A stretch of 64,000 bases of DNA from Acidimicrobiia bacterium. Its GTDB lineage: Bacteria > Actinomycetota > Acidimicrobiia > Spongiisociales > Spongiisociaceae. The DNA is taken from positions 450,518 through 514,517 of the forward strand of contig OZ241390.1 of the NCBI GenBank assembly GCA_965200835.1, read 5' to 3'. The notes below the pieces were generated by a model that did no database searches, was not told where the DNA came from, and saw only the letters and a program-made list of their open reading frames with translations. The position numbers and the translations under genes are program-made. Shown here piece after piece: positions 6,494 to 61,020 of this stretch. Within the stretch, counting starts at the first letter, position 1. Each line of letters begins with the position of its first letter.

Positions 6494-6494
6494 C

Positions 6495-22086: not shown

Positions 22087-22093
22087 AGTTCGC

Positions 22094-44676: not shown

Positions 44677-44754
44677 TGGTAGCGGCGGGCAGACTCGAAC
44701 TGCCGACCTCTCGATTATGAGTCGAGCGCTCTTACCACACTGAGCTACGCCGCC
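44677..44754 (-). tRNA. tRNA-Met (anticodon CAT, elongator-like), CCA encoded
   Basis: Acceptor GGCGGCG/CGCCGCT, anticodon loop CUCAUAA, T-arm GGCAG-TTCGAGT-CTGCC. Confidence 0.85.
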
Positions 44755-44799
44755 TCGGGCTGGGTAGGGTCCACCTGATCGGCAGACGCCTGCCTGTCG

Positions 44800-44873
44800 A
44801 GCCCCCTTCCGGATTCGAACCGGAGACCTCCTCCTTACCATGGAGGCGCTCTGGCCTACTGAGCTAAGGGGGC
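44800..44873 (-). tRNA. tRNA-Thr (anticodon GGT)
   Basis: Acceptor GCCCCCT/AGGGGGC, D-arm GCTC..GAGC, anticodon loop AUGGUAA, T-arm TCCGG-TTCGAAT-CCGGA. No CCA encoded. Confidence 0.85.
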
Positions 44874-44908
44874 AAGGTTCCGACGGGCGTAGCTGCCCGC
44901 CGTCCTAG

Positions 44909-44991
44909 TGCCGGGAGAAGGATTCGAACCTCCGTAGGCATCCACCGGCAGATTTACAGTCTGCTCCCTTTGGCCGCTCGGGCATCCCGGC
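44909..44991 (-). tRNA. tRNA-Tyr (anticodon GTA) with long variable arm
   Basis: Acceptor GCCGGGA/TCCCGGC, D region CCCGAGCGGCCAAAGGG, anticodon loop CUGUAAA, long variable arm, T-arm GGAGG-TTCGAAT-CCTTC. Confidence 0.85.
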
Positions 44992-45973: not shown

Positions 45974-47026
45974 TCAACGGTGGGCCACCAGCACGAGGAA
46001 GTCACCGAGACCTCTAGGGTGAAGGAGGGTCTCGATGTCCTTGGTCCTGCTCCGCACTACGAGCCGCTCCTCCCAGCTACCCGCTCGAGCAAGGGCGAGT
46101 TCCTCCTTCCGCAGCCCAGCCAGGCGGTCACGGAGCCCGAGACGGGTGAGCAGCTCGTGCTGCCGCTCCAGCTCGGCGGTCAACCCATGATCGACCGCCA
46201 CATCCGCCAGCGCTGTGAAGTTCACATCGGCAGTCAGGTCGGTCATACCCGGTTCGGCCAGGGGGTGAGGTCCGAGGTGATGGTTGCGGTAGGTGCGCAA
46301 AGTCCCGTCCTTGCGCCGGGGAATCAGACCGGCCGCCGTGTCGCCATAGTCGATCACCAGGATCGACCCGGCCACCATCCGCTCGGCCAGCCCCGACAGC
46401 CAGGCTTCCGCTCCCAACTGGCACTCCACCACCCCACCTTCCGGGGGTCCGGGCGCGAACCTATCCAGCCAAGCCGACACCTCCGGACGGACGGGTGCTT
46501 GGACGAAGGCCAGATCCCCTCCGTCCCGACCCACCCAGCGTTCCGTCCAGCCGCTCGCTTCGCGCACCGCGATCGCCATTGGCAGGTTGTCCGCCACCTC
46601 GTTGGCGACTACCACCCCTCGCAGTCGAGCTGGAGTACCACCGGGAGGCACGACTTCCGCGTGGGGGAGGCGTTTCCTGATGGTCCCTCGGGCTGCGGAC
46701 GACACCTCGACAGCCACCACGCGCGGGCTGAAGGACAGGTGTTCGACCAGCGGTTCGAGCAGCGAGCCCGACCCGGCGCCCACCTCGACCAAGGTGAAGT
46801 CAGATGGTGCTCCCAGGCGCAGGTACTCCCCCTCCACATACCGGGCCAGGGTGGCACCGAACTCCGGGCTCACTTCCGGGCTGGTCAGGAAGTCCCCGCC
46901 GGAGTGTGAACGGAGCGGCCCGGAGGTGAAGTACCCCCCGTCCGGGTCGTAGAGGACCAGGTCCATGTAGACATCGAACGGGATCGGCCCCTGCCGAGCG
47001 ATCCGGTCCAAGATCATGTCGTTCAC
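45974..47026 (-). CDS. class I SAM-dependent methyltransferase, MidA/DUF185 family
   Basis: LVEVGAGSGSL SAM-binding motif and overall MidA-like length (350 aa). Confidence 0.65.
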   Translation of the reverse strand: MNDMILDRIARQGPIPFDVYMDLVLYDPDGGYFTSGPLRSHSGGDFLTSPEVSPEFGATLARYVEGEYLRLGAPSDFTLVEVGAGSGSLLEPLVEHLSFSPRVVAVEVSSAARGTIRKRLPHAEVVPPGGTPARLRGVVVANEVADNLPMAIAVREASGWTERWVGRDGGDLAFVQAPVRPEVSAWLDRFAPGPPEGGVVECQLGAEAWLSGLAERMVAGSILVIDYGDTAAGLIPRRKDGTLRTYRNHHLGPHPLAEPGMTDLTADVNFTALADVAVDHGLTAELERQHELLTRLGLRDRLAGLRKEELALARAGSWEERLVVRSRTKDIETLLHPRGLGDFLVLVAHR

Positions 47027-47129: not shown

Positions 47130-47954
47130 CTAAAGCCTTGGGAGCAGGGCAGTGAACAGAGCGGCGAAACGGCCGGATGCTTGGTTGGCGCACTCGATTA
47201 CCTCCTCACCCGTGAGCCGGTGGCCAGCGAGTCCGGCCGCCCGGTTGGTGCATAGGGAGATGGCCAGCACGTCCGCTCCCATGTGGCGAGCGGCGGTCGC
47301 CTCGGGCACCGTCGACATGCCCACCAGGGATGCCCCCAGCGTGATCGCCATCCTGATCTCGGCGGGTGTTTCGAACATCGGACCGTGCCACCACAGATAG
47401 ATGCCTTCCCGAAGCTGGACCCCCGCTTCTGCTGCCGCCGACCGGGCCTTGTCCTGGAGGGCCGGGGTGTATACGTCGGTCATGTCCGGGAAGCGGGGGC
47501 CCAATCGCTCGTCGTTGTCCCCCCTGAGGGGACTAATTCCGGCCAGGTTGAGGTGGTCAGTGATCAGAACCAGGTCCCCCGGTCCGATCCCCTCGCCGCA
47601 TCCCCCAGAGGCATTGGTGAGCACGACGGTGCGGCATCCGGCCAGCACAGCCGTGCGGACGGCGAAGGTGATCTCGTCCGCGGCATATCCTTCATAGGCA
47701 TGGACCCGTCCGGAAAGGAGCAATACCCGGTTGCTACCGACTCTCACAGAGTAGGCAGTTCCGCCATGACCCATAGCGGCCGGTAGGGGGAACCCCCGTA
47801 TGTCGGAGTACGGAACGGGCACCGCGTCGGGAAACCGGTCCGGGTAGCCACCTAGTCCGGAGCCCAGCACCACCACCATGTCGTGGCGGTCCTGGCCGGT
47901 GTGTCGGGCCAGGTCGCCTGCAGCCTGTGTCAGACGTTGGTACAGATCACTCAT
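47130..47954 (-). CDS. purine nucleoside phosphorylase (trimeric PNP/MTAP-type, PunA-like)
   Basis: Phosphate-binding GSGLG, LTNASGG, MSTVPE motifs of the PNP/MTAP family. Confidence 0.85.
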   Translation of the reverse strand: MSDLYQRLTQAAGDLARHTGQDRHDMVVVLGSGLGGYPDRFPDAVPVPYSDIRGFPLPAAMGHGGTAYSVRVGSNRVLLLSGRVHAYEGYAADEITFAVRTAVLAGCRTVVLTNASGGCGEGIGPGDLVLITDHLNLAGISPLRGDNDERLGPRFPDMTDVYTPALQDKARSAAAEAGVQLREGIYLWWHGPMFETPAEIRMAITLGASLVGMSTVPEATAARHMGADVLAISLCTNRAAGLAGHRLTGEEVIECANQASGRFAALFTALLPRL

Positions 47955-47993
47955 GAGTACCTAGCCGGCCGTCCGCCACGGTGCCACCAGTCA

Positions 47994-48713
47994 TCACGTA
48001 ATGAGAGCATCGAGACCGACCCTTACCATCGCTTCAACACCTTCGTATACCACCACCCGGTGGGGATCGTAGACCTTCTCCCGGTGGATCGGATTGCCGT
48101 CCGCCGCCAGGATCGCTCCGGTCTCGACCCCGTTCAGCGCACCGTTGACGAACAGAGCTGCGCACTCCATCTCGACCGCCACCGCACCCGCTCGGTGCCA
48201 TAGATCCAGGTCACCGCCCAATACCTCACCCGGATAGAACAACGAGTGGGTAAGCACTACCCCCTCGTGAAACCGTCGGCCAGCTGCGGTAGCCGCCCGC
48301 CGTAGGGCCATCGTCACGTCCACCGAGGCAACCGCCGGGAAGGAGGCGGGCAACATCGAGCCGGTCACGCCGTCCTCCCGGATGGCCGCCGTCACGATCA
48401 CCAGGTCACCGTCCTCCACTTCGATCTTCAGCCCACCGCAGGTGCCGGTGCGGATGATCCGCTTCACCCCGGCCCGGCTAAGTTCCTCGAAGCAGATAGC
48501 CGCGCCCGGTGCTCCGACACCGTGCGAGGTGACCGCTACCTCCACTCCATTGTGCAGACCGGCGTAGGTGACGTATTCGCGGTAACGCCCGAGCAGGCGG
48601 GCATCCTGCAGGCAGGTGGAAGCCAACTTGGCCCGGCTCGGGTCACCCATGACCAACACTCCCTCGGGGATCTCATCAGGATCCACCCTGAGGATCGGGG
48701 TTCTTTCGGCCAT
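47994..48713 (-). CDS. nucleoside phosphorylase, PNP/UDP family 1 (DeoD/Udp-like)
   Basis: PF01048-like fold (VLVMGDPSRA...TGTCGG...VEMECAAL). 239 aa. Confidence 0.7.
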   Translation of the reverse strand: MAERTPILRVDPDEIPEGVLVMGDPSRAKLASTCLQDARLLGRYREYVTYAGLHNGVEVAVTSHGVGAPGAAICFEELSRAGVKRIIRTGTCGGLKIEVEDGDLVIVTAAIREDGVTGSMLPASFPAVASVDVTMALRRAATAAGRRFHEGVVLTHSLFYPGEVLGGDLDLWHRAGAVAVEMECAALFVNGALNGVETGAILAADGNPIHREKVYDPHRVVVYEGVEAMVRVGLDALIT

Positions 48714-48822
48714 CCGGCTACCTCCTCGCTCGTCTTGCCTGGTCTACCAGGGCACTGATTCAACCAGTATGGATCGACTGGGCGGCGGCGCCGCGTCGGT
48801 TTCCCGGCCGTGGCCCAGCGGA

Positions 48823-50847
48823 TCAGACAACTCGGGCGTCGCCTCCATCGATCGGGATCTGGGCGCCGGTAGTGGCCGCGAAAGCGTTGCCGCAGAGCAG
48901 GCCAACGACCCTGGCGACCCTGTGAGAGTCAACCTCAGTGCCTAGCAGGTTCCGGGTGCGGTACTGCTGGGGGGTCATGCCATAGGCGGTGGCCCGCTGA
49001 GCGATCAGTTCCTCACTCCATAGACCGGTGTCGAACACACCGTCGGGATGGACCAAATTCACCCGGATTCCCTCAGGTGCCCACTCGAGGGCCGCCACCC
49101 TGGCCAGCTGCGTCACCGCCGCCTTGGAAGCCGAGTAGGCGACTGCCTCTCGCCCGGGCGCCGCCACGTTCTTCGATCCGATGATCGCTACCCGACCACC
49201 TACCGGAGAGCAAGCCAGCAGCGGGTAAGTGGAGGCAAAGAGGCTCGCCACCGCGTCCGCGTTGATCGCCAGAGTCGACCGCCAACCTCCCAGGTCCAGA
49301 TCCCCGATGGCCGCGGACCGGCCGAACACTCCGGCCGCGGACACCACTATGTCCACCCCTCCGAACCTCTCGACCGTTCTATCCAGCGCGGCCGACTGTG
49401 CCGAGGGATCGGTCACGTCGACTTCCAGCCCCAGCCAGGCCGACCCATCGAACGTTCCCTCCACTGACGGATCCCGATCGAAGCCAGCCACCGCGCAGCC
49501 GTTGGAGAGAAGCTCTGCCGCACAGGCCCGCCCGATGCCCGATGCGGCTCCGGTTACCACCGCCACCATCCCGGCGAACTCCGGTGGTTCGCCGGCGCGA
49601 CGAAGCTTGGCCTGCTCCAGATCCCAGTACTCAACTTCGAACAAGTCGCCGGCACCCAACGCCACATAACCCTCCAGATGATCCTCCGAACGCTCGAGAA
49701 CCGGCATGGTGTGCCGGTAGATGTCGGCCGCGACCGCGGCAGCCTTGGAAGTCTCGCCCACCGTGAGGACCCCGAGGGCCGGATCGACCACGACCCGCGG
49801 TGCCGGGTCGAGCATGGTCAGCTCCGTACGACCCCGGTGCCGGTTCTCCGCGAAGTACTGCCGGTAACTCTCGATGTAGCCATCTACGTCCCGGCCGACC
49901 ATGGGGAGGCGCTTGGTCCTGATCACATGGTCGGGAGTGAGAGGGCCGCGGGTGGCCAGGCTTTCGAGATCGGGCCGCTGCACGAACCGAGCCGCCGCGG
50001 CATCCGCATGGCGGGCCATGATCATGGGTCGGCCGGCGGCCTCCGAAATACGCCGCCGGAGGTCAGCGAGGTCCGATGGGCAGGCGGCGGGGAGAGGGGT
50101 GGGGTCGGAAGTGTCCGGCAGCGGGGCGTGGACCTCGAGCCAGCGCTCCACGGTGGTGATCAGGTCTATATGGCAGTCATAGGCGGTTCTGGTGGTATCT
50201 CCGAAGGTAAACAGCCCATGGTTAAGCAGCACCATGCCGATCGTCCCGTCGTGGTGCTGCTCCTCCCACACCTCGACTACCGCCCGGGCGAGGTCGAAGC
50301 CTGGCATCACGTAGGGAACCACCATCACGGAGGAGCCCAACACCTCCCTGACCAGCCCTTCCCCGTCAGCCACGTTGGTGAGGGTGACGACCGCATCGGC
50401 ATGGCTGTGCTGGACCGCTCGGTAAGGAATGAAACCGTGCAGGAGGGTCTCGACGGAGGGCTGGGGGGCGGCGGGATCGAGCCGGGCCGCCGAGAGTTCC
50501 CTCATCATGTCCGGGTCTGACAGGTGGTCGAGCGCGAGCAGTTGCTGCAGCCGGTCGAGTGGGAGCGGTGTGAACCCGGGTGCCTCGATGGTTGCCATGT
50601 CCCAACCGGAGCCCTTCACGTAGAGCGCCGGTATCACCCGTCCCGTTATGTCCTGGAAGGGGGCTTTGATAGAAGTGTTGCCCCCGCCGTGCAATACCAG
50701 GTGAGGGTCACCACCGAGCAACCGGGACCCGTAGACACACTCCCCCAGTGGACCCTCGAAGGTAGCTGCGTGGTCACCCCGCCATCGGTTTCGCATTCGA
50801 TCCAATCTCCGTTCGTAGTAGGGAAGGCTAGACAATGGCCGGCTCAC
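48823..50847 (-). CDS. bifunctional class II aldolase (rhamnulose-1-phosphate-aldolase-like) / short-chain dehydrogenase fusion protein
   Basis: N-terminal class II aldolase/adducin domain (HGGGNTS...HSHAD) fused to a C-terminal SDR (VAVVTGAASGIGRA...YSASKAAV). 674 aa. Confidence 0.8.
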   Translation of the reverse strand: MSRPLSSLPYYERRLDRMRNRWRGDHAATFEGPLGECVYGSRLLGGDPHLVLHGGGNTSIKAPFQDITGRVIPALYVKGSGWDMATIEAPGFTPLPLDRLQQLLALDHLSDPDMMRELSAARLDPAAPQPSVETLLHGFIPYRAVQHSHADAVVTLTNVADGEGLVREVLGSSVMVVPYVMPGFDLARAVVEVWEEQHHDGTIGMVLLNHGLFTFGDTTRTAYDCHIDLITTVERWLEVHAPLPDTSDPTPLPAACPSDLADLRRRISEAAGRPMIMARHADAAAARFVQRPDLESLATRGPLTPDHVIRTKRLPMVGRDVDGYIESYRQYFAENRHRGRTELTMLDPAPRVVVDPALGVLTVGETSKAAAVAADIYRHTMPVLERSEDHLEGYVALGAGDLFEVEYWDLEQAKLRRAGEPPEFAGMVAVVTGAASGIGRACAAELLSNGCAVAGFDRDPSVEGTFDGSAWLGLEVDVTDPSAQSAALDRTVERFGGVDIVVSAAGVFGRSAAIGDLDLGGWRSTLAINADAVASLFASTYPLLACSPVGGRVAIIGSKNVAAPGREAVAYSASKAAVTQLARVAALEWAPEGIRVNLVHPDGVFDTGLWSEELIAQRATAYGMTPQQYRTRNLLGTEVDSHRVARVVGLLCGNAFAATTGAQIPIDGGDARVV

Positions 50848-50904
50848 AGATGGCTGCGAAGCGGACCGCCGGGTGTCCGAGGCTGAGGCCAGCGGATCGG
50901 CTCG

Positions 50905-51687
50905 TCAGTAAGGAGTGTCTCCCCCGTCGACATTGATGGCCTGGCCTCTGATGATCAGGGCGTGATCCGAGAGCAGGAAGGCGATCACCCGACCGACCTC
51001 CACGGGCGCGACCCGCCTGCCGAGCTGGGCCGGTCCCATCCCGGCCAGGAGCTGATCGGCCGGTATGTCGAGATGGGGCGATAGCCAATCCGCCACTTCC
51101 CGCAACATGGGGGTGTCGACCCCACCGGGACACACCGCATTCACGTTTATATCGTGCTCGGCCCACTCCATCGACAGTGACCGGGTGAGTCCGAGCACTG
51201 CCGACTTGGAGGCGTTGTAGGCGGCCATGTTACGGTAGCCGACCTTCCCGCAGTTGGACGAGACGTTGACGATGGCCCCTCCGCCACGCTCTCTAAGATG
51301 CCGGCCCACCGCCTGCGCAACCAGGAAGCTGCCCGTCACGTTCACATCCAGCTGGTGACGCCAGTCGGCCGCGCTGGCCTGCCAGGCCTCGTCGAGGGCC
51401 ACCACGCCGGCGTTGTTGACCGCTCCGTCGAGCCGTCCGAGGTGATCCAGGGTGGCTTGGACCATTCGTGTCACCTCATCCTCCGAGGTCACATCCGCTC
51501 GGAAGGCAGCCGTCCCGGCGCCGGCGGGATCGACCTGTGCCGCCACTTCCCGCGCACCTGCCAGATCTCGATCGACCAGGGCAACCCGGCCGCCCTCCTC
51601 CAGGATTGCTCGGGTGACCCCAGCCCCGATCCCTCCGGCCGCGCCGGTGACCACGTACACCCGTTCGTCCAGCCGGCGGTCACTCAT
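50905..51687 (-). CDS. SDR-family oxidoreductase
   Basis: VTGAAGGIG Rossmann motif and YNASK catalytic motif. Confidence 0.75.
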   Translation of the reverse strand: MSDRRLDERVYVVTGAAGGIGAGVTRAILEEGGRVALVDRDLAGAREVAAQVDPAGAGTAAFRADVTSEDEVTRMVQATLDHLGRLDGAVNNAGVVALDEAWQASAADWRHQLDVNVTGSFLVAQAVGRHLRERGGGAIVNVSSNCGKVGYRNMAAYNASKSAVLGLTRSLSMEWAEHDINVNAVCPGGVDTPMLREVADWLSPHLDIPADQLLAGMGPAQLGRRVAPVEVGRVIAFLLSDHALIIRGQAINVDGGDTPY

Positions 51688-51696
51688 CCGGTGTAC

Positions 51697-52470
51697 CTAC
51701 CAGGTGGGACGGCTGAGCACGCCGCCGTCCACCACCAGGTTGGCGCCGGTGATCCAGCGAGCCAGGTCGGAACAGAGGAATACACATGCATCCCCGATGT
51801 CCTCCGGCGTGCCGAGCCGCCCCATGGGACAGGCTTCCTGCCAGCGGCGGACCCCTTCGGGCCAGGCTGTTTCGATACCGGAGCGATGGATGAGACCAGG
51901 TGAGACGGTGTTGACCCGGACTCCCGAAGGTCCGTAGGTAAGAGCGGCCGCCCGGGCATGGATGATGAGGGCGGCCTTGGAGACCGAGTAATGGCCATGT
52001 CCCGGCGCAGGGTTGGTTCCTTCTATGGAGGAGATGTGAACTATCGAGCCGCCCCGGCCTTGGGAGATCATGGCAGCAGCGGCGCTCTGGGTGAGCCTAT
52101 GCACCGCGGTCAGGTTGGTGTCGATCATCTCCGACCAATCGGCCTCGGTCAGGCCGGCGAAGTCCGCCACCGGTTGGATGCCGGCATTGTTGACCAGACC
52201 GTCCAGACGGCCGTACTCCTCAATGACCCCCTCCACGAGGGTGGCCGGGCCATCATCAGCGGTCAGATCGGCGACCATGGCCACCACCGGCTTCCCTGTG
52301 CCATCGTGCAGGTGATCCACGGGCGAGGCTCGCGTGTGGGCCACCACCGTGGCTCCCACCGCCACCATCCGGCGCACAATGCCGGATCCGATATTGCCTC
52401 CCGCGCCGGTCACCAGCACGACCCGGTCCGCCAGATCGAGCATCCGGGCAGGAGAGGGGAGATCGTTCAT
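51697..52470 (-). CDS. SDR-family oxidoreductase
   Basis: VTGAGGNIG and YSVSK motifs. Start at MNDLPSP (ATG 52468-52470). Confidence 0.72.
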   Translation of the reverse strand: MNDLPSPARMLDLADRVVLVTGAGGNIGSGIVRRMVAVGATVVAHTRASPVDHLHDGTGKPVVAMVADLTADDGPATLVEGVIEEYGRLDGLVNNAGIQPVADFAGLTEADWSEMIDTNLTAVHRLTQSAAAAMISQGRGGSIVHISSIEGTNPAPGHGHYSVSKAALIIHARAAALTYGPSGVRVNTVSPGLIHRSGIETAWPEGVRRWQEACPMGRLGTPEDIGDACVFLCSDLARWITGANLVVDGGVLSRPTW

Positions 52471-52913
52471 GACCTGACCAATAGGGCGATCCGATCCGCC
52501 GCCTCGGGAAAACGCGCCACCAGGTCGGCTGCACATCCCAGCTCGAATGCGTCGTCACGGTAGGGCGGGGACATGGTTGCTCCGACCAGTGACCAGGCTC
52601 CGGTAGTCCGAGCACCCATCCAGACGCCGGTGGGGACTGCTACCAAGGGACGCTGCCCGGCGACCAGATCGTCCCCCAACACGGGACATTGCACCCGACC
52701 CTGTGGACCCAGCAGCAGCATCTCCACGGCCGCACCTGCATAGTGATGCCACAGCTCGGGACCGTCCAGGCGATGCATGGCCGAGAAGTCATCCGGCTGG
52801 AGCAGGTAGTAGATGGCGCTGCTGTGGTCGTCCTTCCAGGTCCGAGCCCATCTTCCTCCCTCGTGGGGAAGGGGGGACAGATCGAGTAGCTCCGCTACCT
52901 CGGGACCGGTCAC
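52467..52913 (-). CDS. cupin-domain protein
   Basis: 148-aa beta-rich sequence. Overlaps the downstream SDR by 4 nt and the upstream deaminase by 4 nt, so it is translationally coupled within the cluster. Confidence 0.45.
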   Translation of the reverse strand: MTGPEVAELLDLSPLPHEGGRWARTWKDDHSSAIYYLLQPDDFSAMHRLDGPELWHHYAGAAVEMLLLGPQGRVQCPVLGDDLVAGQRPLVAVPTGVWMGARTTGAWSLVGATMSPPYRDDAFELGCAADLVARFPEAADRIALLVRS

Positions 52914-54214
52914 TGTGCCAGCCGCACCGCTCTCCGGGTCATCTCTGCTCTGGTAGCCGCCAGATCGATCGAGGTCACCCGGCCGTTCTCGACCACTTGC
53001 TTGCCGCCCACCCAGACGGAGCTGACCGCCTCGGGCGAACCGGACCAGACCAGCCGGGAGACCGGATCATCCTCTCCCGGCACCACCGGATGGAAGGCCG
53101 AAGTCTCGGGCGAGATCACCACCATGTCCGCGTTCGCCCCGGCAGTCAGACGGCCCAGATCCGGACGATCGAGGCAGTCGGCTGCCCCAGCTGTGGCCAT
53201 CCGCAGAGCCTGATCGGCCAGAAGAGCGCCTGCGTCGCCAGATTTCAACCGGGCCAGCTGCATGGCGGTTCTCATCTCCTCGAAGAGGTCCAGGCGATAG
53301 TGGGAAGCCGGTCCATCGGTTCCCAGCCCCACTCGAACACCGGCTGAGATCAGGTCCTGCACCCTGGCAACCCCGGAACCATGCTTCGAGTTCGAACAGG
53401 GACAGTGGGCCACCGCCACCTGCCCGCGGGCAAGGATGTCGATGTCCTCATCGGACAGCCAGACTGCATGAGCCGCCAGCGTCCGGCCCTCGAACATCCC
53501 CACCGATTCCAGATAGGCCGGGGCCGACATGGCCGACCTGTCGCGCACGGCAGCGTCCTCCCACTCCTCCTCGGCCACATGGATATGGACGAGCATCCCG
53601 GTGTCGGTCGCTATCTCGGCCACCCGCCGCAGGCATCCGTCCGAGAGGGAGTAAGCGGCGTGAGGACCGAGACCCACCTCGATGAGGTCGTTCGAGGCCC
53701 ACCGCTCCCTGGTGGCAACCATCTCCTCCAGCTGCCCCTCCCATGACCCGAGATGATCGAACTCGGCGTCCTCGATGATCGGGGCAGTCACTAGGGATCG
53801 CAGCCCTGCGTCGGCTGCCCCCCGAGCTACCGCATCCGCGTAGAAGTACATCTCTACCGAGGTCGTTATGCCGTTGGCGAGTAGTTCGGCAGCTCCGGCT
53901 CTCATAGCCACCCGTACGTCTTCCGGGGTGAGCCGTGCTTCCCGGGGCCACATGACCTCCTTTAGCCAGCGGTCCACCGGCAGCCCTTCCCCGGCGCCCC
54001 TCACCAGCACCATCGGGGTATGGCAATGGATGTTGACCATTCCCGGCATCAGGATGCCCTCCACCCGATGGATCGTCGCTCCGGGTACATCGGGTGCCTC
54101 CGATGCCGGGCCCGACCAGGTGACCAGCCCCTCATCCACATCTACCACTCCACGGGTGATGGGATCCGCCTCCCCGGACATAGTGATCAATGTGTCGGCT
54201 GCGTAGCGATCCAT
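52910..54214 (-). CDS. amidohydrolase of the MTA/SAH (or 5'-deoxyadenosine) deaminase family (MtaD/DadD-like)
   Basis: HxH metal motif (NIHCHT), HVAEE catalytic segment, and ~434 aa from start MDRYAADTLITM (ATG 54212-54214). Confidence 0.7.
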   Translation of the reverse strand: MDRYAADTLITMSGEADPITRGVVDVDEGLVTWSGPASEAPDVPGATIHRVEGILMPGMVNIHCHTPMVLVRGAGEGLPVDRWLKEVMWPREARLTPEDVRVAMRAGAAELLANGITTSVEMYFYADAVARGAADAGLRSLVTAPIIEDAEFDHLGSWEGQLEEMVATRERWASNDLIEVGLGPHAAYSLSDGCLRRVAEIATDTGMLVHIHVAEEEWEDAAVRDRSAMSAPAYLESVGMFEGRTLAAHAVWLSDEDIDILARGQVAVAHCPCSNSKHGSGVARVQDLISAGVRVGLGTDGPASHYRLDLFEEMRTAMQLARLKSGDAGALLADQALRMATAGAADCLDRPDLGRLTAGANADMVVISPETSAFHPVVPGEDDPVSRLVWSGSPEAVSSVWVGGKQVVENGRVTSIDLAATRAEMTRRAVRLAQ

Positions 54215-54262
54215 CTTCCACTCCTGCGTCGCGGGCGTACCCGACTCCCGTATGATAAGGAC

Positions 54263-55318
54263 ATGGACCCACTCGGCGGCCGCTCGCTCGACTGGTCGGG
54301 CGGTGCCGTGCTCATGGTCGACCAGACCCGGCTGCCCGACCAATACGAAGTGCTCCGGATCGAGTCCGTTCCCGACATGGTGGCCGCCATCCGGCGGCTC
54401 TCCGTCCGGGGAGCCCCTGCTATCGGGGTTGCCGGAGCCTTGGGAGTGGTGCTGGCCATCCAGACGCACGGGAATTCCGGAGCCGCCTTCGACGCCGCGG
54501 TGGCCAGTCTCAGAGGGGCCCGTCCCACCGCCGTGAACCTGGCCCGTATGGTCGATAGGGTGGCAGCGCTAGCACCTGAGGGCTTGGACCGGGCCTTGGA
54601 GGAGGCCCTCCGGATACGGGACGAGGAGATCGCGGCATCGATATCGATGGGCGAGTACGGAGCCGACCTGGTGATGGAGCTGATCGCCCGGCCGGATGCC
54701 CGCACTATGACGATCTGCAATACCGGAGGTCTGGCCACCATAGAGCGAGGGACTGCGCTGGCAGTGATCCAGACCCTTCACGAGCGGGGAGCACTGGCGG
54801 AGGCACTCGCCCTGGAAACTCGACCTCTCCTCCAGGGAGCTCGGCTGACCACCTGGGAACTGGGCAGGATGGGGGCACCACATCGCCTGCTGGTGGACTC
54901 GGCGGCACCTTTCATGCTGGCCCGGCGCCAGGCCGACGTGGTTCTCACCGGGGCTGACCGGGTCGCGGCCAACGGCGACACCGCCAACAAGATCGGAACC
55001 TTTTCCCTGGCCCTGGGTGCCCGGAACGCCGGAGTGCCGTTCATCGTGGTAGCACCCGAATCCACCCTGGATCTCGACACTCCGAGCGGCAATGCGATCC
55101 CGATCGAGGACCGAGAGGCGGATGAGGTAGTCACCGTCAAGAGAACGGTCACCGCTCCGGAGAACACCAAGGCTGCCAACCCGGCCTTCGACATCACCCC
55201 CTTCTCGTTGATAACCGCCATCGTCACCGATCGCCGGGTGGTCCGGCTGGACCATGGTGATAGCCTTGGCTCCGTTCCACTGGGAGACCTCAGGCAACCC
55301 TCGGGGATATGTCAGTAA
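54263..55318 (+). CDS. mtnA: S-methyl-5-thioribose-1-phosphate isomerase (MtnA; eIF-2B alpha/beta/delta family)
   Basis: eIF-2B-like fold with conserved ICNTGGLAT, TGADRVAANGDTANKIGT and the catalytic region. Divergently arranged with the deaminase (49-nt spacer). Confidence 0.8.
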   Translation: MDPLGGRSLDWSGGAVLMVDQTRLPDQYEVLRIESVPDMVAAIRRLSVRGAPAIGVAGALGVVLAIQTHGNSGAAFDAAVASLRGARPTAVNLARMVDRVAALAPEGLDRALEEALRIRDEEIAASISMGEYGADLVMELIARPDARTMTICNTGGLATIERGTALAVIQTLHERGALAEALALETRPLLQGARLTTWELGRMGAPHRLLVDSAAPFMLARRQADVVLTGADRVAANGDTANKIGTFSLALGARNAGVPFIVVAPESTLDLDTPSGNAIPIEDREADEVVTVKRTVTAPENTKAANPAFDITPFSLITAIVTDRRVVRLDHGDSLGSVPLGDLRQPSGICQ

Positions 55319-55381: not shown

Positions 55382-56485
55382 TTGTACATGATCATAAGGA
55401 GCTCCAGGATCATCATCCTGGCGTTGGCACTCACCCTGGCCGGGGCAGCCTGTGGCGGCCCCGAGCCGGAGATAGAGTCGTCGGCCGATGCCGACGCGGT
55501 AGCAACGACTGCGGCTCCGGCCACCGAGGCAACGACCACCACTGCGGCAGAGGACCGGATCAGCCTCATCTACGTCAGCCCCAATCCCCTGGGTGTCAAC
55601 AACTTCCTGATTCTCGGCGAGGTCGGAACCGAGCGGGCGGCCGAACGACATGGTGGTACCTGGAAGACCTTCGAGTCGGTGGACGACTCGACCCGGCGCG
55701 CCAATATCGAAGCGGCCATCGACGAAGCACCCGACATCGTCGTGCTAACCACCTTCACTCTGGTCGAGATGGCGGACGAGTATTCCAAGGCCCACCCCGA
55801 TCAGAAGTTCATCATCATCGACGCATGTCCTGAGGAACCTGCCCCCAACCTGCACTGTGGGGTATTCCGGGAGCACGAAGGCGCTTACTTGTTGGGCGTG
55901 ATGGCAGGCCATCTGTCGGAGGCCAAGCAGATCGGCTCGGTGGCAGCCCTCGATATCCCGTTCTTCAAACGTTGGTGGGAGAGCTTCGCCATGGGCGCTC
56001 AGTCGGTCGATTCTTCCATCGAGAACTCCGTGGTGTTCATCGCCGGGGACAACCCCTTCTCCGATCCGGCCCGGGCCAAGGAGCTGGCCCTCTCGCTAGC
56101 CGCCCAAGGACCCGACCACATATTTGCCGTGGGCGCGGGTTCCAACGGCGGCGTGTTCGAAGCCGCTGAGGAGGCGGGCTTCCTGGCTTACGGCGTGGAT
56201 GTCAACGAATGTCCCAGCGCACCCGGCTTCATCGTGGACAACAACCTGAAGGTGGTGGATGCGGTCGTCGACCAGCTCATCGAGCAGGTTCTCGACGGAA
56301 CGGCCGGACCGGTGGTCGACTTCGGGTTGGCCGAGGGCGGGACCGGCGTGATGGCCCTGTCCCCTGACCTGGCCGACAGCCAATGCGTGATCGCCGACAA
56401 TCCTGAGGTCGTCGAGGAGGTCAGGCGTATCGCCGACGGGATCATCGATGGCTCCATCGTCGTCCCGGATCCATTGTTCGGCTAA
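55382..56485 (+). CDS. BMP-family ABC transporter substrate-binding lipoprotein (nucleoside-binding, PnrA/Med-like)
   Basis: Signal peptide plus lipobox (LTLAGAACGG) and a BMP fold. Confidence 0.75.
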   Translation: MYMIIRSSRIIILALALTLAGAACGGPEPEIESSADADAVATTAAPATEATTTTAAEDRISLIYVSPNPLGVNNFLILGEVGTERAAERHGGTWKTFESVDDSTRRANIEAAIDEAPDIVVLTTFTLVEMADEYSKAHPDQKFIIIDACPEEPAPNLHCGVFREHEGAYLLGVMAGHLSEAKQIGSVAALDIPFFKRWWESFAMGAQSVDSSIENSVVFIAGDNPFSDPARAKELALSLAAQGPDHIFAVGAGSNGGVFEAAEEAGFLAYGVDVNECPSAPGFIVDNNLKVVDAVVDQLIEQVLDGTAGPVVDFGLAEGGTGVMALSPDLADSQCVIADNPEVVEEVRRIADGIIDGSIVVPDPLFG

Positions 56486-56528: not shown

Positions 56529-58052
56529 GTGACACCGGCACTGGAGTTCCGAGGTGTAACCAAGCGGTTCCCCGGCGTCCTGGCGAACGACTCCGTCGAC
56601 ATGACAGTCCATTCCGGCGAGATACACGCGGTGGTGGGTGAGAACGGAGCCGGGAAGACCACTCTGATGTCGATCCTGTTCGGCCTCCTGCCGGCGGATT
56701 CCGGGGATATCCAGGTGGACGGGAAGCCGGTCCGGTTCACTTCAGCCCTCGAGGGGATCCGGGCCGGGTTGGGCATGGTGCATCAGGCGTTCCGCCTGTT
56801 CCCCTCTCTCACGGTGGCCGACAATGTGGTCTTCCGGGAAGAACCGACCCGGCGAGGTCTGCTAGATCGGTCCGAGAGCATCCGCCAGGTGGGCGAGCTA
56901 GCCGATCGTTACGGCTTGGCGGTGGACCCAAAGGCGGTGATCGAAACGTTGCCGGTAGGGGTGCTGCAGCGGGTAGAGATCCTCAAGGCGCTCTACCGGG
57001 ATGCCCGCATCCTGATCCTCGACGAACCCACCGCGGTCCTGACTCCCCAGGAGCGGGACAAGTTGTTCGAGATCATCAGACGCCTGCGCGACTCCGGCCG
57101 GACGATCCTGTTCATCACCCACAAGCTCGGCGAGGTGATGTCACTCTCGGATCGGGTGACGGTGCTCCGGGACGGCCGGGCGATGGCCCACCTGGTTACG
57201 GCGGAGACCAACCCGGCAGAGATCGCCCGGCACATGACCGGCCGGTCGGTAGATCTGGATCGGCGGGCACCGGACCACCGACCGGGGGACCCTATCCTGT
57301 CGGTTTCCGACCTGGACGTGAGAGGTCGCCATGACCGGTTGGTAGTGAAGGAAGCTACCTTCGAAGTCTGTTCCGGCGAGATCGTCGGGATCGCGGGCAT
57401 TGCCGGGAACGGCCAGACCGAGCTCATCGAAGCAGTGGCCGGGCTCCGGGAGGCATCAGGCGGCTCCATCCATCTGAACGGGATCGACCTCGAAGGATCG
57501 GACGTGTCGAGGAGACGCTCGGCAGGGATGGCCTACGTGCCGGAGGATCGTCACGGGGTGGGTACCAGCCATCGTTCCTCGGTCCAGGCCAATCTACTGC
57601 TGGGTCACCAGCGCCGCCCGGGGATGCAGCGGAGAGGCTGGTTCCATCTGCGGGCCGTCCGGGATCACGCTCGCCGGCTGGTGGAGGCGTACGGGATCCG
57701 GTCGGGCCCGATCAGCTCGCCGGTGGCCACTCTATCGGGCGGCAACCTCCAGAAGGTGGTGGTGGCCCGGGAGATGTCGCATGGAGCGCCGCTGCTGATT
57801 GCCGAGCAGCCCTCGCGCGGTCTCGACATCGCCGCCATCGAGTTCATCCACGACCGCTTGATCCGATTCCGTGACGAAGGGGGCGCCGTCCTGCTGGTGT
57901 CGGCGGAGCTGTCCGAGATCCTGGCGCTCAGCACCCGCGTTCTGGTGATGTTCGGAGGAGAGATGGTGGCCGAGCTCGACCCTTCCGGTGTCACCGAGGC
58001 CGAAATCGGCATCTACATGACCGGGGCTCATCTCGAGGGTGCCCATGTCTGA
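56529..58052 (+). CDS. ABC transporter ATP-binding protein with duplicated ABC domains (sugar/nucleoside CUT2-type)
   Basis: Two Walker A motifs (GENGAGKTT, GIAGNGQTE) and LSGGNLQKV signature. 507 aa. Confidence 0.85.
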   Translation: MTPALEFRGVTKRFPGVLANDSVDMTVHSGEIHAVVGENGAGKTTLMSILFGLLPADSGDIQVDGKPVRFTSALEGIRAGLGMVHQAFRLFPSLTVADNVVFREEPTRRGLLDRSESIRQVGELADRYGLAVDPKAVIETLPVGVLQRVEILKALYRDARILILDEPTAVLTPQERDKLFEIIRRLRDSGRTILFITHKLGEVMSLSDRVTVLRDGRAMAHLVTAETNPAEIARHMTGRSVDLDRRAPDHRPGDPILSVSDLDVRGRHDRLVVKEATFEVCSGEIVGIAGIAGNGQTELIEAVAGLREASGGSIHLNGIDLEGSDVSRRRSAGMAYVPEDRHGVGTSHRSSVQANLLLGHQRRPGMQRRGWFHLRAVRDHARRLVEAYGIRSGPISSPVATLSGGNLQKVVVAREMSHGAPLLIAEQPSRGLDIAAIEFIHDRLIRFRDEGGAVLLVSAELSEILALSTRVLVMFGGEMVAELDPSGVTEAEIGIYMTGAHLEGAHV

Positions 58053-59202
58053 GGTCAGGACCGAGACCCCCGCCCTGCTCGGCAACCGAATCGTAACGAT
58101 CCTGTCCCATCCGGTGCTCTTCTCTCTGGTGTTTGCGTTCGCGGTGGGTTGGGCGATCGTCTGGCTTACCGGCAGTGATCCGGGGTTTGCCTACCGGTCC
58201 ATGTTCGATGGCGCAGTCAGCGGATCGGGTCTGCGCAACACACTGGGTAGGGCGATACCGATCATCGGAATGGCCCTGGCCGTGTCGGTCGCCTTCCGGT
58301 CCGGGGTCATCAACCTGGGCGGAGAAGGACAGATGGTGGTCGGCGGCCTGGCAGGAAGCCTGGTGGCGATCTACCTCCCGGGACCTGGACTGGTGGTGAT
58401 TCCCCTGGCCATGCTGGCAGGGGCCCTGGCAGGCGCGGTCTGGGCAGTGCTACCGGCCCTCGGACAGACCCGCCTCCAGCTTCCTATTCTGATCACCAGC
58501 CTGCTGCTCAACTATGTGGCCAGAGCTGTCACCGGCTACCTGGTCCGGTTCCAGTTCCTGGATGACACGGTCACCCTGACCTCCACCGAGCAGGTCCCCA
58601 TGACGGCTCGCATGCCCAAGATGCCTCTGTTCGGAGGCGTCAGCCTGTCCCTGGTGCTGGTCATCCTGCTGGTGTTGGTCGCCTGGGTGGTCTACGCCAG
58701 AACCGTAGCGGGCTACGAAACCCGGATGGCCGGCCTGAACGGGCGCTTTGCCCGCTACGGGGGAATCCAGGTGGAGCGCCAGACGGTGGGAGTGATGATG
58801 GTTGCCGGTGCCATCGGCGGAGTAATCGGCACCCACCTGATAATCGGCGACGCCTACCGCTTCATCGACGGTGAGCTGGTGTTGAGCGGGCTGGCCTGGA
58901 CCGGTTTGCTGGTGGCTCTGCTGGCCGCCAATCACCCAGCCCTCATCCTGGTGGCCGGGTTGCTGTTCTCCGGCCTGCAGATCGGAGGTCTGGCCATGCA
59001 GCGAGAGCCGGAAGGCGTGTCGTGGCGGCTGTCCCAGGTGTTGCAAGCCCTGGTGATCGTGGCAGTTGCCAGCCGGCTCACTTTCGGATGGTTCAAGCAA
59101 CGGGCGGGACGTGCCGCACCCGCAGGAGAGCCGGATACGGCCGCGGTGGGAGAGGTCTTATGTTCGACCAGCTGTTCGACGCTGCCCTGCTCGACTCGGT
59201 GA
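58039..59202 (+). CDS. ABC transporter permease (CUT2/BMP system)
   Basis: Polytopic membrane protein immediately after the ATPase gene (overlap 14 nt). Confidence 0.75.
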   Translation: MPMSEVRTETPALLGNRIVTILSHPVLFSLVFAFAVGWAIVWLTGSDPGFAYRSMFDGAVSGSGLRNTLGRAIPIIGMALAVSVAFRSGVINLGGEGQMVVGGLAGSLVAIYLPGPGLVVIPLAMLAGALAGAVWAVLPALGQTRLQLPILITSLLLNYVARAVTGYLVRFQFLDDTVTLTSTEQVPMTARMPKMPLFGGVSLSLVLVILLVLVAWVVYARTVAGYETRMAGLNGRFARYGGIQVERQTVGVMMVAGAIGGVIGTHLIIGDAYRFIDGELVLSGLAWTGLLVALLAANHPALILVAGLLFSGLQIGGLAMQREPEGVSWRLSQVLQALVIVAVASRLTFGWFKQRAGRAAPAGEPDTAAVGEVLCSTSCSTLPCSTR

Positions 59203-60080
59203 TCCGGGCGATGATCCCGATCCTGCTGGCCGCTCTGGGCGGGATGATCTGCGAGCGGGCCGGCGTCTTCCAGATCGCCATGGAAGGGATGATGCTGGCC
59301 GGTGCCTTCGCAGCCGTGGCTGGCTCCTACCTAGTGGTGTATAGCGGCCTCGGGGTGCTGTTCGCGGTTTGTGCTGGAGTACTGGTGTCCCTGATGCTGG
59401 CCTTCGGTACCGTCAGCCGCCGTGGCGATCCGATCGTGCTCGGTATCGCCCTCAACCTGATGGCCCTCGGTCTGACCGGATTCCTCCTACCCCAGATTTT
59501 CGGGGTGAGGGGCGTGTTCCGGCATGAGCGGATCGACGGATTGGATCGCCTACCCATCCCCGGGCTGTCCGACCTCCCATGGATTGGACCGGTGCTGTTC
59601 AACCAAACCATCCTGGCCTACCTGGCCTTCCTGCTGGTACCCGCTATCTGGCTGCTCATGTTCCGGACCCCGGTTGGCCTCAGGCTGAGAGGTGTCGGGG
59701 AACGGCCGCTGGCCGCCGAGTCCCTCGGAGTGAACCCCACCGCCTATCAGTACGGCGCGGTGATCCTGTCGGGGGTGCTCTCGGGTCTGGCCGGAGCACA
59801 GCTGGCGCTGGGCAACGTGGTGCAGTTCGCCGAGAACATGTCCAGTGGTCGGGGATGGGTGGCAGTGGTAGCCGTCATGCTCGGTCGCGCCCATCCGTTC
59901 GCAGTCTTCGGGGCCAGCCTGCTGTTCGCCTTCGCCGAAGGTCTGGGCTTCCGCCTCCAGGGGAACGGCCTACCTGTGCAGATCACCGACGCCTTGCCCT
60001 TCGTGGTGACCCTGATCGCTCTGATCGCGGCCCGAAAGCGCTTCGCCCGACTGCTGGATCTGACCACCGCCCACAACTGA
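59160..60080 (+). CDS. ABC transporter permease (CUT2/BMP system, second subunit)
   Basis: Polytopic membrane protein. Start taken at MFDQLFD (ATG 59160). Confidence 0.72.
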   Translation: MFDQLFDAALLDSVIRAMIPILLAALGGMICERAGVFQIAMEGMMLAGAFAAVAGSYLVVYSGLGVLFAVCAGVLVSLMLAFGTVSRRGDPIVLGIALNLMALGLTGFLLPQIFGVRGVFRHERIDGLDRLPIPGLSDLPWIGPVLFNQTILAYLAFLLVPAIWLLMFRTPVGLRLRGVGERPLAAESLGVNPTAYQYGAVILSGVLSGLAGAQLALGNVVQFAENMSSGRGWVAVVAVMLGRAHPFAVFGASLLFAFAEGLGFRLQGNGLPVQITDALPFVVTLIALIAARKRFARLLDLTTAHN

Positions 60081-60111: not shown

Positions 60112-61020
60112 CTACTCGAGGATCGCCCCGGACCGGTTGGCTGATTTCACCAGCCTGAGCAGCTTGCGCGCCCGCGGGTCGAGCTCGGCATCCGACCTCC
60201 AGACCCCTTCGATCCTGCGAAGGGCCACCAGCGGACCTTCCTCGAGGTCCGGATCCTCTCCCCCGGATGCGGCAACCTGGCGAGGGAGCACCGTGCGGGC
60301 AAATCCGAATACCGCCATCTGGCGAAGGACAGACGGGTTGCCCGACTCGAGCGCAACCTGGTACCGGATCCCGAGCCGGGCCAATCCCTGATCGACCAGC
60401 TGCCGGGTTCGGGATCCAGGAGGGTAGAAGGCCCAACTATCGGCAGCGGTTTCGGCTGGTGATCGGTCCCGAGCTCTCTGGACCGTCGGCAAGCCTCGTC
60501 GTGAGTAGATATGCATTCGCTCGGTGGCAATCGGCGTGGCGTCGTACCGGGGCCCGGCCGGACCGACTACGAAGGCTAAGTCCAGCTGAAAGTCGTCCAG
60601 CATCGACAGCAGCTCGGCGGACTCGTCCACCACCAACTGAAGGTCTATGCCTGAATGCTCCTCCTGCATCCGGTAGAGGCCGGCGGGGATGGTGTAGAGG
60701 CCGACGGTATCGATCATGCCTACCCGGAGGGTTCCCACCTCACCCTTCTCCCATCCATCCAGCCATCTGAGCAGGTCGGAGGTCTGGCCCAGGACTCCGT
60801 CCGCGTAACGGGCGACCCGAGTGCCAGCTTCGGTCAGGACCCGTCGCCGGCCGTCCTTCCTGAACAGCTGCGCGCCCAGCCGTTTCGACAGCTCGGCCAG
60901 CGAGTGGGACAGGGCTGGTTGGCTGATCCCGAGCTCCAGCGCCGCATCGGTGAACGAACCGAGGCGTTCCACCTCCTGCAGGCAGCGCAGGCTCCTGAAG
61001 TTGAGAAGCGGTGTATCCAT
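60112..61020 (-). CDS. LysR-family transcriptional regulator
   Basis: N-terminal HTH (FTDAALELGISQPALSHSLAELSKRLG) plus LysR substrate-binding domain. Divergent from ino1. Confidence 0.85.
   Translation of the reverse strand: MDTPLLNFRSLRCLQEVERLGSFTDAALELGISQPALSHSLAELSKRLGAQLFRKDGRRRVLTEAGTRVARYADGVLGQTSDLLRWLDGWEKGEVGTLRVGMIDTVGLYTIPAGLYRMQEEHSGIDLQLVVDESAELLSMLDDFQLDLAFVVGPAGPRYDATPIATERMHIYSRRGLPTVQRARDRSPAETAADSWAFYPPGSRTRQLVDQGLARLGIRYQVALESGNPSVLRQMAVFGFARTVLPRQVAASGGEDPDLEEGPLVALRRIEGVWRSDAELDPRARKLLRLVKSANRSGAILE

Follow-up and report, generated by a model that had tools for sequence, protein, structure and literature searches.

In this study, we examined a 64,000-nucleotide stretch of an Acidimicrobiia genome (contig OZ241390.1; hereafter the window, meaning the whole stretch) and describe in it a gene cluster, at positions 47130-55318 with an importer running onward to 60080, that we read as divergent operons for the uptake and dismantling of adenosine-type nucleosides through a variant of the dihydroxyacetone phosphate (DHAP) shunt. 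We give this reading a probability of roughly 0.55, with 5′-methylthioadenosine (MTA) along with 5′-deoxyadenosine, both by-products of S-adenosylmethionine (SAM), as the likeliest substrates, whose sugar, under the same joint estimate, would be unable to enter the pentose phosphate pathway. Its core is well supported by sequence comparison, namely that an RhaE-like aldolase fused to a dehydrogenase appears to stand in for the shunt aldolase Ald2/DrdA. On the minus strand, from 54214 down to 47130, seven genes encode an amidohydrolase, a Cupin_5 protein, two short-chain dehydrogenases/reductases (SDRs), the fusion, a Udp/DeoD-like phosphorylase and a PunA-type purine nucleoside phosphorylase (PNP). 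Divergent from the amidohydrolase gene, a gene for an MtnA-type isomerase and four genes for a BMP-family ATP-binding cassette (ABC) importer follow on the plus strand. An earlier note on this DNA had listed these genes, and all are present on the strands and at essentially the positions it gave, with only small corrections of start sites.

The fusion protein and its linkage to MtnA-type isomerases

With its start refined to the ATG at 50796, the fusion (48823..50796, minus strand; maximal open reading frame (ORF) to 50847) has 657 residues, is identical to database protein P0001 and consists of a class II aldolase-like (RhaE-like) domain, a middle domain and a C-terminal SDR domain (Pfam Aldolase_II at residues 41-232, adh_short at 428-611). 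It passes the NCBIfam model NF006196 for bifunctional aldolase/short-chain dehydrogenases (PRK08324.2-4; 903.4 > 831, aligned over 1-657 of 657) and stays under both rhamnose-type cut-offs (TIGR02632, 407 < 568; NF006189, 389 < 634); eight other fusions, taken from distant loci of which some have an adjoining isomerase gene and some do not, show the same pattern of passes and failures. Residues H130, H132, H193 and E116, the TGxxxGxG motif and S541/Y554/K558 are invariant among 18-21 homologues, and the three histidines with E116 fit putative zinc ligands and a catalytic base. The sole significant match of the aldolase domain in the PDB, by single-sequence and by family-profile searches, is 3M4R, which is the N-terminal domain of an archaeal protein, itself uncharacterised, that belongs to the same family as the fusion. 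With no other significant match to go by, placing the domain by sequence among FucA, RhaD, DrdA and MtnB was given up, and since it does not significantly match the characterised stand-alone aldolases, a phylogeny cannot be rooted on them. The earlier expectation that it might fall into an Ald2/DrdA/MtnB clade is not borne out. Because the domain does not significantly match the Ald2/DrdA/FucA types and the whole protein stays under the rhamnose-type cut-offs, the fusion is best described as a distinct RhaE-like lineage that would take the place of Ald2/DrdA beside mtnA.

RhaEW (YuxG, Caur_2283), the L-rhamnulose-1-phosphate aldolase/L-lactaldehyde dehydrogenase, has a three-part architecture in common with the fusion and clear homology to it; its metal-ligand histidines and SDR catalytic residues are kept, and its coupled, NAD+-requiring chemistry of cleavage and oxidation is probably shared. 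RhaEW nevertheless belongs to a different NCBIfam equivalog, is about 31% identical and acts on a C6 6-deoxyketose-1-phosphate, whereas the substrate predicted for the fusion is a C5 5-deoxy- or 5-methylthio-ketose-1-phosphate. Rodionova et al. found RhaEW orthologues always within rha loci (PMC3870299); the fusion loci are instead linked to mtnA and never, in our set, to rha genes. When rhaI, rhaM, the FGGY kinase gene and rhaS from a genuine rha cluster (Phyllobacterium plasmid, with rhaS, ABC genes, rhaM, kinase and rhaI), which served as positive control, were used as tblastn queries, no match appeared in the window or in the 84 loci introduced below, and the fusion of that cluster is 31% identical to ours. 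The remark in the earlier note that rhaA, rhaB and rhaM are missing is thus upheld for the window, and neither clustering of the aldolase domain with rhamnulose-1-phosphate aldolases nor adjoining rha genes were found. A fusion on a Shinella plasmid (42% identity) has no isomerase gene nearby and was set aside as a member of another subfamily.

A scan of the fusion alignment against one genome per species yielded 80 loci, drawn from many phyla, with identities of 48-77%, and at least 580 species-representative genomes matched two family peptide patterns and encode a relative of the fusion. The window's proteins were compared by tblastn with these 80 loci and four metagenomic ones (83 distinct loci, the related genomes being represented by 10-kb flanks and their ORFs called heuristically where G+C is high). 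Comparison of gene neighbourhoods, suggested by the earlier note, strengthened the association it had noticed: 47 of the 83 distinct loci have an MtnA homologue no more than 10 kb from the fusion gene, and in 29 the distance is 300 bp or less; of the 55 loci whose flanking sequence reaches 3 kb or more on each side, 34 have one within 10 kb. The loci span Actinomycetota, Cyanobacteria, Beta- and Zetaproteobacteria and Verrucomicrobia, with adjacent pairs in Micromonospora (Micromonosporaceae), Saccharothrix, Longispora, Microthrix, Limnothrix, Burkholderiales, Nitrosomonadales, Gallionellaceae, Zetaproteobacteria and Chthoniobacter. Since mtnA is normally single-copy, such adjacency is beyond chance. 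In the window itself the two genes are 3.5 kb apart, and at least 11 further Acidimicrobiia genomes, with 60-77% fusion identity, have its gene order, so that this arrangement is not due to chance either; in some Acidimicrobiia relatives a gene for a GntR regulator is inserted in the operon.

In three loci the pair meets a methylthioadenosine phosphorylase (MTAP). In a zetaproteobacterial locus (L067) the order is fusion, MTAP, phosphoribosyltransferase, isomerase, and in two others (L070, L076) MTAP and phosphoribosyltransferase genes lie just upstream of the pair; the two MTAPs scored, those of L067 and L070, pass NF006492 (517 and 514 > 437). From their taxon names, these three belong to iron- or ammonia-oxidising lineages, which we take to be autotrophs. 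Because the pair sits with MTAP in presumed autotrophs, it can hardly serve there for anything but the disposal of MTA and 5′-deoxyadenosine, and in such proteobacteria it would be a housekeeping function paired with mtnP. Taken together, the genomic comparison points to the isomerase-fusion pair as an ancient, widely conserved core to which the Acidimicrobiia added uptake and entry steps. In Micromonospora mangrovi (L030, 7193-8819), DhaK and DhaL genes lie directly upstream of the pair; they are not kept in the other Micromonospora loci and were dropped as pathway partners.

The isomerase (54263..55318, plus strand) was correctly typed as MtnA by the earlier note. It passes the (5-methylthio/5-deoxy)ribose-1-phosphate isomerase model TIGR00512 (353 > 279) and fails that for ribose-1,5-bisphosphate isomerase (TIGR00511, 142 < 314), its best solved relatives are the MtnA structures 6A34, 1T9K and 2YVK, and the cysteine of the CN(T/A)G motif and the aspartate of the GADR motif are aligned.

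Predicted route from nucleoside to dihydroxyacetone phosphate

To discern how the cluster might work, we assembled its predicted activities into a pathway. The BMP transporter would import the nucleoside, the MtaD-like amidohydrolase would deaminate it to the inosine analogue, as its family suggests, and a phosphorylase would free hypoxanthine and a 5-substituted ribose-1-phosphate; of the two phosphorylases, the Udp/DeoD-like one (PNP2) is conserved and the PunA-type one (PNP1) would be accessory. The MtnA-type isomerase is expected to yield the ribulose-1-phosphate, and the fusion, judged by its homology and genomic linkage, to convert this into DHAP and a C2 product, the metal-dependent RhaE-like domain cleaving the C3-C4 bond. 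The NAD-type SDR domain would then most likely oxidise the C2 fragment to acetate or (methylthio)acetate, just as RhaEW produces lactate. In the earlier note the dehydrogenase reduced the aldehyde; oxidation seems more likely because RhaEW requires NAD+, forms lactate and is inactive with NADH (PMC3870299).

This logic, from nucleoside through 5-substituted ribose-1-phosphate and ribulose-1-phosphate to DHAP and a C2 compound, is that of the DHAP shunt of Rhodospirillum rubrum, extraintestinal pathogenic Escherichia coli and Bacillus thuringiensis, which uses MtnP or MtnN plus MtnK, then MtnA/DrdI, then Ald2/DrdA. There, as here, the genes for the cleavage enzyme and an MtnA-family isomerase lie together, mtnP is present in the relatives L067, L070 and L076, and some of the known clusters carry transporters and allow growth on exogenous 5′-deoxynucleosides (PMC10986504, PMC6079011). 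Two versions have been characterised, starting with MtnP or with MtnN/MtnK, and the aldehyde-reducing enzyme was still unidentified in 2026 (PMC13474568). The window differs in three respects: in place of the FucA-like Ald2/DrdA of about 215 residues there is an RhaE-like domain to which a middle domain and an SDR are joined, a deaminase and PNPs appear to replace the entry step by MtnP (MTAP) or MtnN/MtnK, and a BMP transporter and extra Cupin_5 and SDR genes are present. The DHAP-shunt-like route proposed at the outset therefore stands in so far as the fusion family is set apart from the rhamnose type, is linked to mtnA across phyla and meets mtnP in three loci; as to the substrate, catabolism of ordinary ribose-1-phosphate remains a competitor, as discussed below. 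In the full-text literature, with many subscription papers out of our reach, we found no work linking the fusion to mtnA, the DHAP shunt, 5-deoxyribose or SAM by-products.

The deaminase gene (52910..54214, minus strand; Amidohydro_1, 1.2e-63) is the first of its operon, and its place is kept in at least 10 Acidimicrobiia loci. Its product belongs to the TRZ/ATZ-MtaD group, and its closest solved relatives are MTA/S-adenosylhomocysteine (SAH) deaminases (4F0R at 1e-61, then 3LNP, 4DYK and 4GBD), which outrank 8-oxoguanine, triazine and guanine deaminases. Assignment of either the deaminase or the isomerase to an unrelated subfamily, which would have undercut the earlier proposal, was not found. 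PNP2 (47994..48713, minus strand; PNP_UDP_1, 1.3e-33) is a hexameric-type enzyme of the Udp/DeoD type, as had been suggested, and its best solved relatives are Streptococcus pyogenes Udp (3QPB), Plasmodium PNPs, Thermus thermophilus PNP and a Sulfolobus MTAP (1JDS). In 11 loci its gene comes directly after that of the fusion, and two of them, L022 and L024, are isomerase-fusion-PNP2 trios. PNP1 (47130..47954, minus strand; PNP_UDP_1), the last gene of the operon, had been called PNP/MTAP-type; it is indeed a phosphorylase, and passes the PunA-type equivalog NF006054 (313.8 > 218), but scores far under all models for MTAP or methylthioinosine phosphorylase (MTIP), for instance 67 against 275 for TIGR01694, and is found downstream only in the closest relatives (L005, L007, L008).

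Entry by deamination has precedents in Pseudomonas aeruginosa, with an MTA deaminase and an MTIP, and in Plasmodium, with an adenosine deaminase and a PNP; Plasmodium PNP accepts the 5′-methylthioinosine made by Plasmodium adenosine deaminase, a close functional parallel. A deaminase-first route through DadD of Methanocaldococcus jannaschii is cited within PMC10986504. Those routes, like the one proposed here, place an inosine-type phosphorylase after an MtaD/DadD-type amidohydrolase, and PNP2 is nearest the Plasmodium PNP/Udp group; their enzymes, however, are not known to be clustered with isomerase and aldolase, and the window's phosphorylases fail the MTIP model (57 < 223).

The importer comprises a BMP/PnrA-family substrate-binding lipoprotein (55382..56485; Pfam Bmp, 1.1e-34), an ABC ATPase with two ABC_tran stretches (56529..58052; 4.1e-47) and two BPD_transp_2 permeases (58039..59202, 2.1e-30; 59022..60080, maximal ORF, 5e-36), all on the plus strand. 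Synteny of the ATPase and first permease genes is conserved, and the true start of the second permease is probably near 59.2 kb, its homologues having about 305 residues. Among the solved relatives of the lipoprotein are PnrA/TmpC (2FQW) and other BMP proteins, and its gene adjoins that of the isomerase in Acidimicrobiia loci at 64-90% identity.

Competing explanations and the Cupin_5/SDR module

Several observations weigh against disposal of MTA and 5′-deoxyadenosine. The role given to the NF006196 fusion is argued from homology and genomic linkage, and even with a family profile its aldolase domain matches FucA-type, MtnB-like and other class II aldolases in the PDB only at E-values of 0.02-0.45 (lowest 0.019). 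No isomerase gene is near the fusion in about 40% of the full-flank loci. The deaminase, close as it is to MTA/SAH deaminases among solved proteins, scores under every NCBIfam equivalog cut-off, including those implied by its MtaD/DadD label in the earlier note (PRK09045, the best, 319/540; DadD PRK07228, 256/522; MtaD, 202/779). PNP1 is a canonical inosine/guanosine phosphorylase, PNP2 is under all equivalog cut-offs with uridine phosphorylase models scoring best, and MTAP, MtnN and MtnK are absent from the window. BMP transporters usually carry ordinary nucleosides, and our model gives no step to the cupin and the two SDRs, three conserved genes for which the handling of sulfur-containing aldehyde or alcohol products, put forward in the earlier note, is speculative. 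Finally, in six Microthrix-like Acidimicrobiales loci (L034, L035, L036, L041, L044, L047) a uracil phosphoribosyltransferase (UPRTase) gene precedes the isomerase-fusion pair, with a gene for pseudouridine-5′-phosphate glycosidase (PsuG, Indigoidine_A) just beyond it, in place of genes related to SAM; a convergent BMP ABC transporter follows the pair in the four whose sequence is long enough (L034, L036, L041, L047), and these six clusters are without cupin, extra SDRs and deaminase.

The alternative that survives best, although we consider it doubtful, is a general catabolism of nucleoside ribose without phosphopentomutase. Imported adenosine, inosine, guanosine or uridine would be deaminated and phosphorolysed, and ribose-1-phosphate would pass through ribulose-1-phosphate to DHAP and glycolate (or glycolaldehyde), which would make the route a bacterial counterpart, without bisphosphates, of the archaeal non-carboxylating pentose bisphosphate pathway. 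This would suit the nucleoside type of the transporter, the PunA-equivalog and uridine-phosphorylase scores of PNP1 and PNP2, and the Microthrix-type loci with their UPRTase, PsuG and BMP genes. An archaeal ribulose-1-phosphate aldolase gives DHAP and glycolaldehyde (PMC9700705), and a report cited in a review (PMC6302742) has methionine-salvage enzymes of Bacillus subtilis acting on ribose. The haloarchaeal pathway itself, however, runs through ribose-1,5-bisphosphate and ribulose-1,5-bisphosphate and needs a kinase and a phosphatase (PMC9700705), whereas Pfam calls of the cluster genes include neither a kinase nor a HAD phosphatase, and the isomerase passes the MtnA model while failing the one for the bisphosphate. 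Against ribose also speak the occurrence of the pair beside specific MTAPs in presumed obligate autotrophs, which have no reason for such a catabolism, the MtaD-like rather than Add-like deaminase, and an unfused homologue that meets a 5-deoxy C5 phosphate (below). Most bacteria, moreover, send ribose-1-phosphate through DeoB, a general point, our coverage of the host genome being the window. Both 5′-deoxynucleosides and ribose could be handled through promiscuity.

That unfused homologue ends the lsr operon (lsrK-lsrR-lsrACDB) on pSymB of Sinorhizobium meliloti (L089, 7001-8251; CP140921.1, 1047739-1048989), where a 416-residue ‘class II aldolase’ occupies the place of lsrF/lsrG in E. coli. 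It corresponds to the fusion minus its SDR, that is, to the aldolase and middle domains, and shares 37% identity with the window's fusion along 400 residues (E 2e-80), against 28% with the rhamnose-type fusion. The Lsr substrate, phosphorylated 4,5-dihydroxy-2,3-pentanedione (phospho-DPD), and its isomer 3-hydroxy-2,4-pentanedione-5-phosphate (P-HPD), the product of LsrG, are C5 phosphates with a terminal methyl group, and by our own derivation P-HPD is formally 4-keto-5-deoxyribulose-1-phosphate. The 416-residue protein may be an undescribed enzyme of phospho-DPD processing. In the known processing of phosphorylated autoinducer 2 (AI-2), LsrG isomerises and the thiolase LsrF yields DHAP and acetyl-CoA; the products in our case would again be DHAP and a C2 acid. 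LsrF, however, is a thiolase with the class I aldolase fold and LsrG is a small isomerase outside the cupins, and neither is homologous to proteins of the window, which also lacks LsrK and an AI-2 transporter. Because this homologue meets a C5 methyl phosphate and RhaEW needs NAD+ for the release of DHAP (PMC3870299), the fusions may oxidise C4 first and then split the hydrated diketone into DHAP and an acid, and the same two facts favour 5-deoxy substrates over ribulose-1-phosphate. In another pSymB record (L090, 5697-8059), mtnK-mtnA lies beside a sugar ABC transporter and a regulator with no adjoining aldolase gene, and the only pSymB relative of the fusion's aldolase domain that we located is the lsr-operon gene, in the record of the other strain. 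The VOC proteins encoded close to the S. meliloti homologue and those close to Microthrix-type clusters are related too weakly (E 3e-5 over 79 residues) to count as a shared element.

The Cupin_5 (DUF985) protein (52467..52913, minus strand; PF06172, 1.1e-29, 103.7 above a gathering score of 25) co-occurs with the fusion in 14 loci, and its solved relatives (1ZNP, 1YUD, 3LOI) are all uncharacterised. Of the two classical SDRs, SDRb (51697..52470, minus strand; adh_short_C2, 4.8e-58; probable start at ATG 52470) travels with the cupin in L023, L025 and L027, while SDRa (50905..51687, minus strand; adh_short, 4e-56), with an NAD-type aspartate after β2, is confined to full Acidimicrobiia clusters. 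In the Ilumatobacteraceae loci L023 and L027 only the isomerase, a single SDR, the fusion and Cupin_5 are left of the cluster and the flanks are unrelated, and because both persist there, the cupin and SDRb are best placed with the sugar-phosphate chemistry and not with uptake. The best solved relatives of SDRb are 7B81/7DO5 and glucose 1-dehydrogenases, and that of SDRa is 4GH5/4ITU (1.2e-41), presumably a hydroxypropyl-coenzyme M dehydrogenase; at about 1e-36 to 1e-41 these are too distant for substrates to be assigned. The Cupin_5 family includes yeast Cff1p, required for the synthesis of 4-hydroxy-5-methyl-3(2H)-furanone (MHF) (PMC8092285, PMC13267403). In Agrobacterium/Rhizobium (L085, 5231-6441; L086, 5231-6423), a Cupin_5 gene (Atu3615 family, 1ZNP) is translationally coupled to one for glyoxalase II (Lactamase_B + HAGH_C), which may point to involvement in the metabolism of dicarbonyls or thioesters. 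A family-wide link of Cupin_5 to SAM by-products is not supported, the Rhizobiales genes being coupled to gloB and not to mtn genes.

From these elements a more speculative and improbable scheme can be drawn, in which an oxidative route joins the disposal of SAM by-products to AI-2/MHF chemistry. An SDR would first oxidise a ring or chain hydroxyl of 5-deoxy- or 5-methylthio-ribose/ribulose-1-phosphate to a diketone like phospho-DPD or P-HPD, Cupin_5 would rearrange this by proton transfer or elimination, that is, by carbonyl migration or by release of phosphate or methanethiol, and the aldolase-like domain would split the hydrated 4-keto intermediate into DHAP and acetate. Such an order would account for the failure of RhaEW to release DHAP without NAD+.

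Slightly less probable again is that the substrate is some other modified nucleoside or sugar-1-phosphate, remodelled by the Cupin_5/SDR pair before cleavage. The conserved cupin and SDR module, which plays no part in a simple shunt, and the annotation of Cupin_5 as a predicted sugar epimerase would fit, as would the candidate taxa Spongiisociaceae, Poriferisocius and Poriferisodalaceae among the related genomes, which from their names alone we take to be sponge-associated; yet in most lineages the pair works without the module, and nothing points to such a substrate.

It is very unlikely that the aldolase-like domain is an MtnB-like dehydratase or an epimerase in a non-canonical methionine salvage, with SDRs and cupin replacing MtnC and MtnD. 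MtnB and sugar-phosphate 4-epimerases do share the class II aldolase fold (PMC6302742), a cupin, acireductone dioxygenase (ARD), ends the canonical pathway, another releases methanethiol in the MTA-isoprenoid shunt (PMC5893883), and the window also holds a MetX/MetY-like pair. Among characterised proteins, however, those nearest to the domain are aldolase/dehydrogenase fusions, its profile match to the MtnB-like 2IRP has an E-value of 0.41, the cupin is of the Cupin_5 and not the ARD family, and enolase-phosphatase and transaminase genes are absent nearby. Last and least probable, an ordinary RhaEW in a rhamnose or 6-deoxyhexose locus beside nucleoside genes by chance would explain the identical domain architecture, the detectable homology (TIGR02632, 407 bits) and the name ‘rhamnose utilization protein RhaD’ given by JGI to homologues, but is contradicted by the model cut-offs, the 31% identity and the absence of rhaI, rhaM, kinase and rhaS described above.

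Genomic setting and significance

The window has a G+C content of 60-66%, and its proteins find their nearest relatives in metagenome-assembled Acidimicrobiia genomes. Within the minus-strand operon, translational coupling as claimed earlier applies to the tightly packed deaminase, cupin and SDR genes (junctions of -4, -4 and 9 bp, the SDRb start overlapping the cupin stop as ATGA) and not to the later junctions, with 108 bp from SDR to fusion, 109 bp from fusion to PNP2 and 39 bp from PNP2 to PNP1. The divergent spacer between deaminase and isomerase measures 48 bp, and a weak terminator-like hairpin lies beyond PNP1 at 47117-47104. Consensus promoter and terminator scans stayed at background level, and an Rfam search of the window returned tRNAs and no riboswitch. 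Two neighbouring genes were excluded from the cluster, a LysR gene (60112-61020) whose position is not kept in relatives, and a Methyltransf_28 gene (45974-47026, minus strand), which only the closest relatives (L005, L007) have in that downstream position and which lies beyond the terminator-like site; the latter encodes an NDUFAF7-like, SAM-dependent protein, and a functional link to the operon is improbable.

The cluster adjoins a core transcription and translation block (tuf / secE-nusG / rplKA / rplJ / rpoBC), with four minus-strand tRNA genes (41177-41250 and 44680-44991) flanking the stretch from tuf to rpoBC. The nusG ORF (38810-40735, minus strand, 641 residues), directly downstream of secE, has an HEPN_Swt1-like domain at residues 13-120 (6.5e-16), about 340 residues before NGN and KOW; if that long start is genuine, the architecture is unusual. 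Some 25 kb from the cluster, a Cys_Met_Meta_PP enzyme (431 residues, MetY-like) is encoded beside an Abhydrolase_1 protein (389 residues, MetX-like) at 20791-23263 on the minus strand, a pair that looks like direct sulfhydrylation. Enzymes of that kind can use methanethiol, which is relevant to sulfur recovery from MTA. At 3567-8543 on the plus strand, a gene for an SBP_bac_3 binding protein precedes two for unusually long BPD_transp_1 permeases (517 and 682 residues), and a 1-deoxy-D-xylulose 5-phosphate synthase gene (1586-3547) lies just upstream of it.

The literature leaves several places in which such an enzyme would be of use. According to Rapp et al., an Ald2 homologue is missing from cyanobacteria that carry just mtnP and mtnA, which ‘must employ another pathway’ (PMC8102628), Beaudoin et al. 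gave an ‘unidentified aldolase’ as one option for the disposal of 5-deoxyribose (PMC6079011), and Miller et al. described the aerobic methanethiol-releasing steps of the DHAP-methanethiol shunt as unknown (PMC5893883). If our reading is true, it would supply the missing aldolase of those cyanobacteria, fill the option left for 5-deoxyribose and provide the shunt's still-unknown dehydrogenase. Should the oxidation-first order hold, it would in addition offer a substrate for Cupin_5/Cff1p and candidates for the aerobic steps that release methanethiol, and would explain the S. meliloti lsr homologue; the Cupin_5/SDR module and that homologue are leads on Cff1p and MHF biosynthesis and on aerobic recovery of sulfur from MTA.

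In conclusion, a large and widespread family, present in at least 580 species-representative genomes and now named merely ‘bifunctional aldolase/short-chain dehydrogenase’ or, wrongly, after rhamnose utilization, would, if the DHAP-shunt reading is true, gain a specific function, namely to carry out the shunt's cleavage step with the dehydrogenase contained in the same protein. Abundant Acidimicrobiia of soil, freshwater and sea would then import and consume SAM-derived nucleosides, which bears on the cycling of methylthio compounds.

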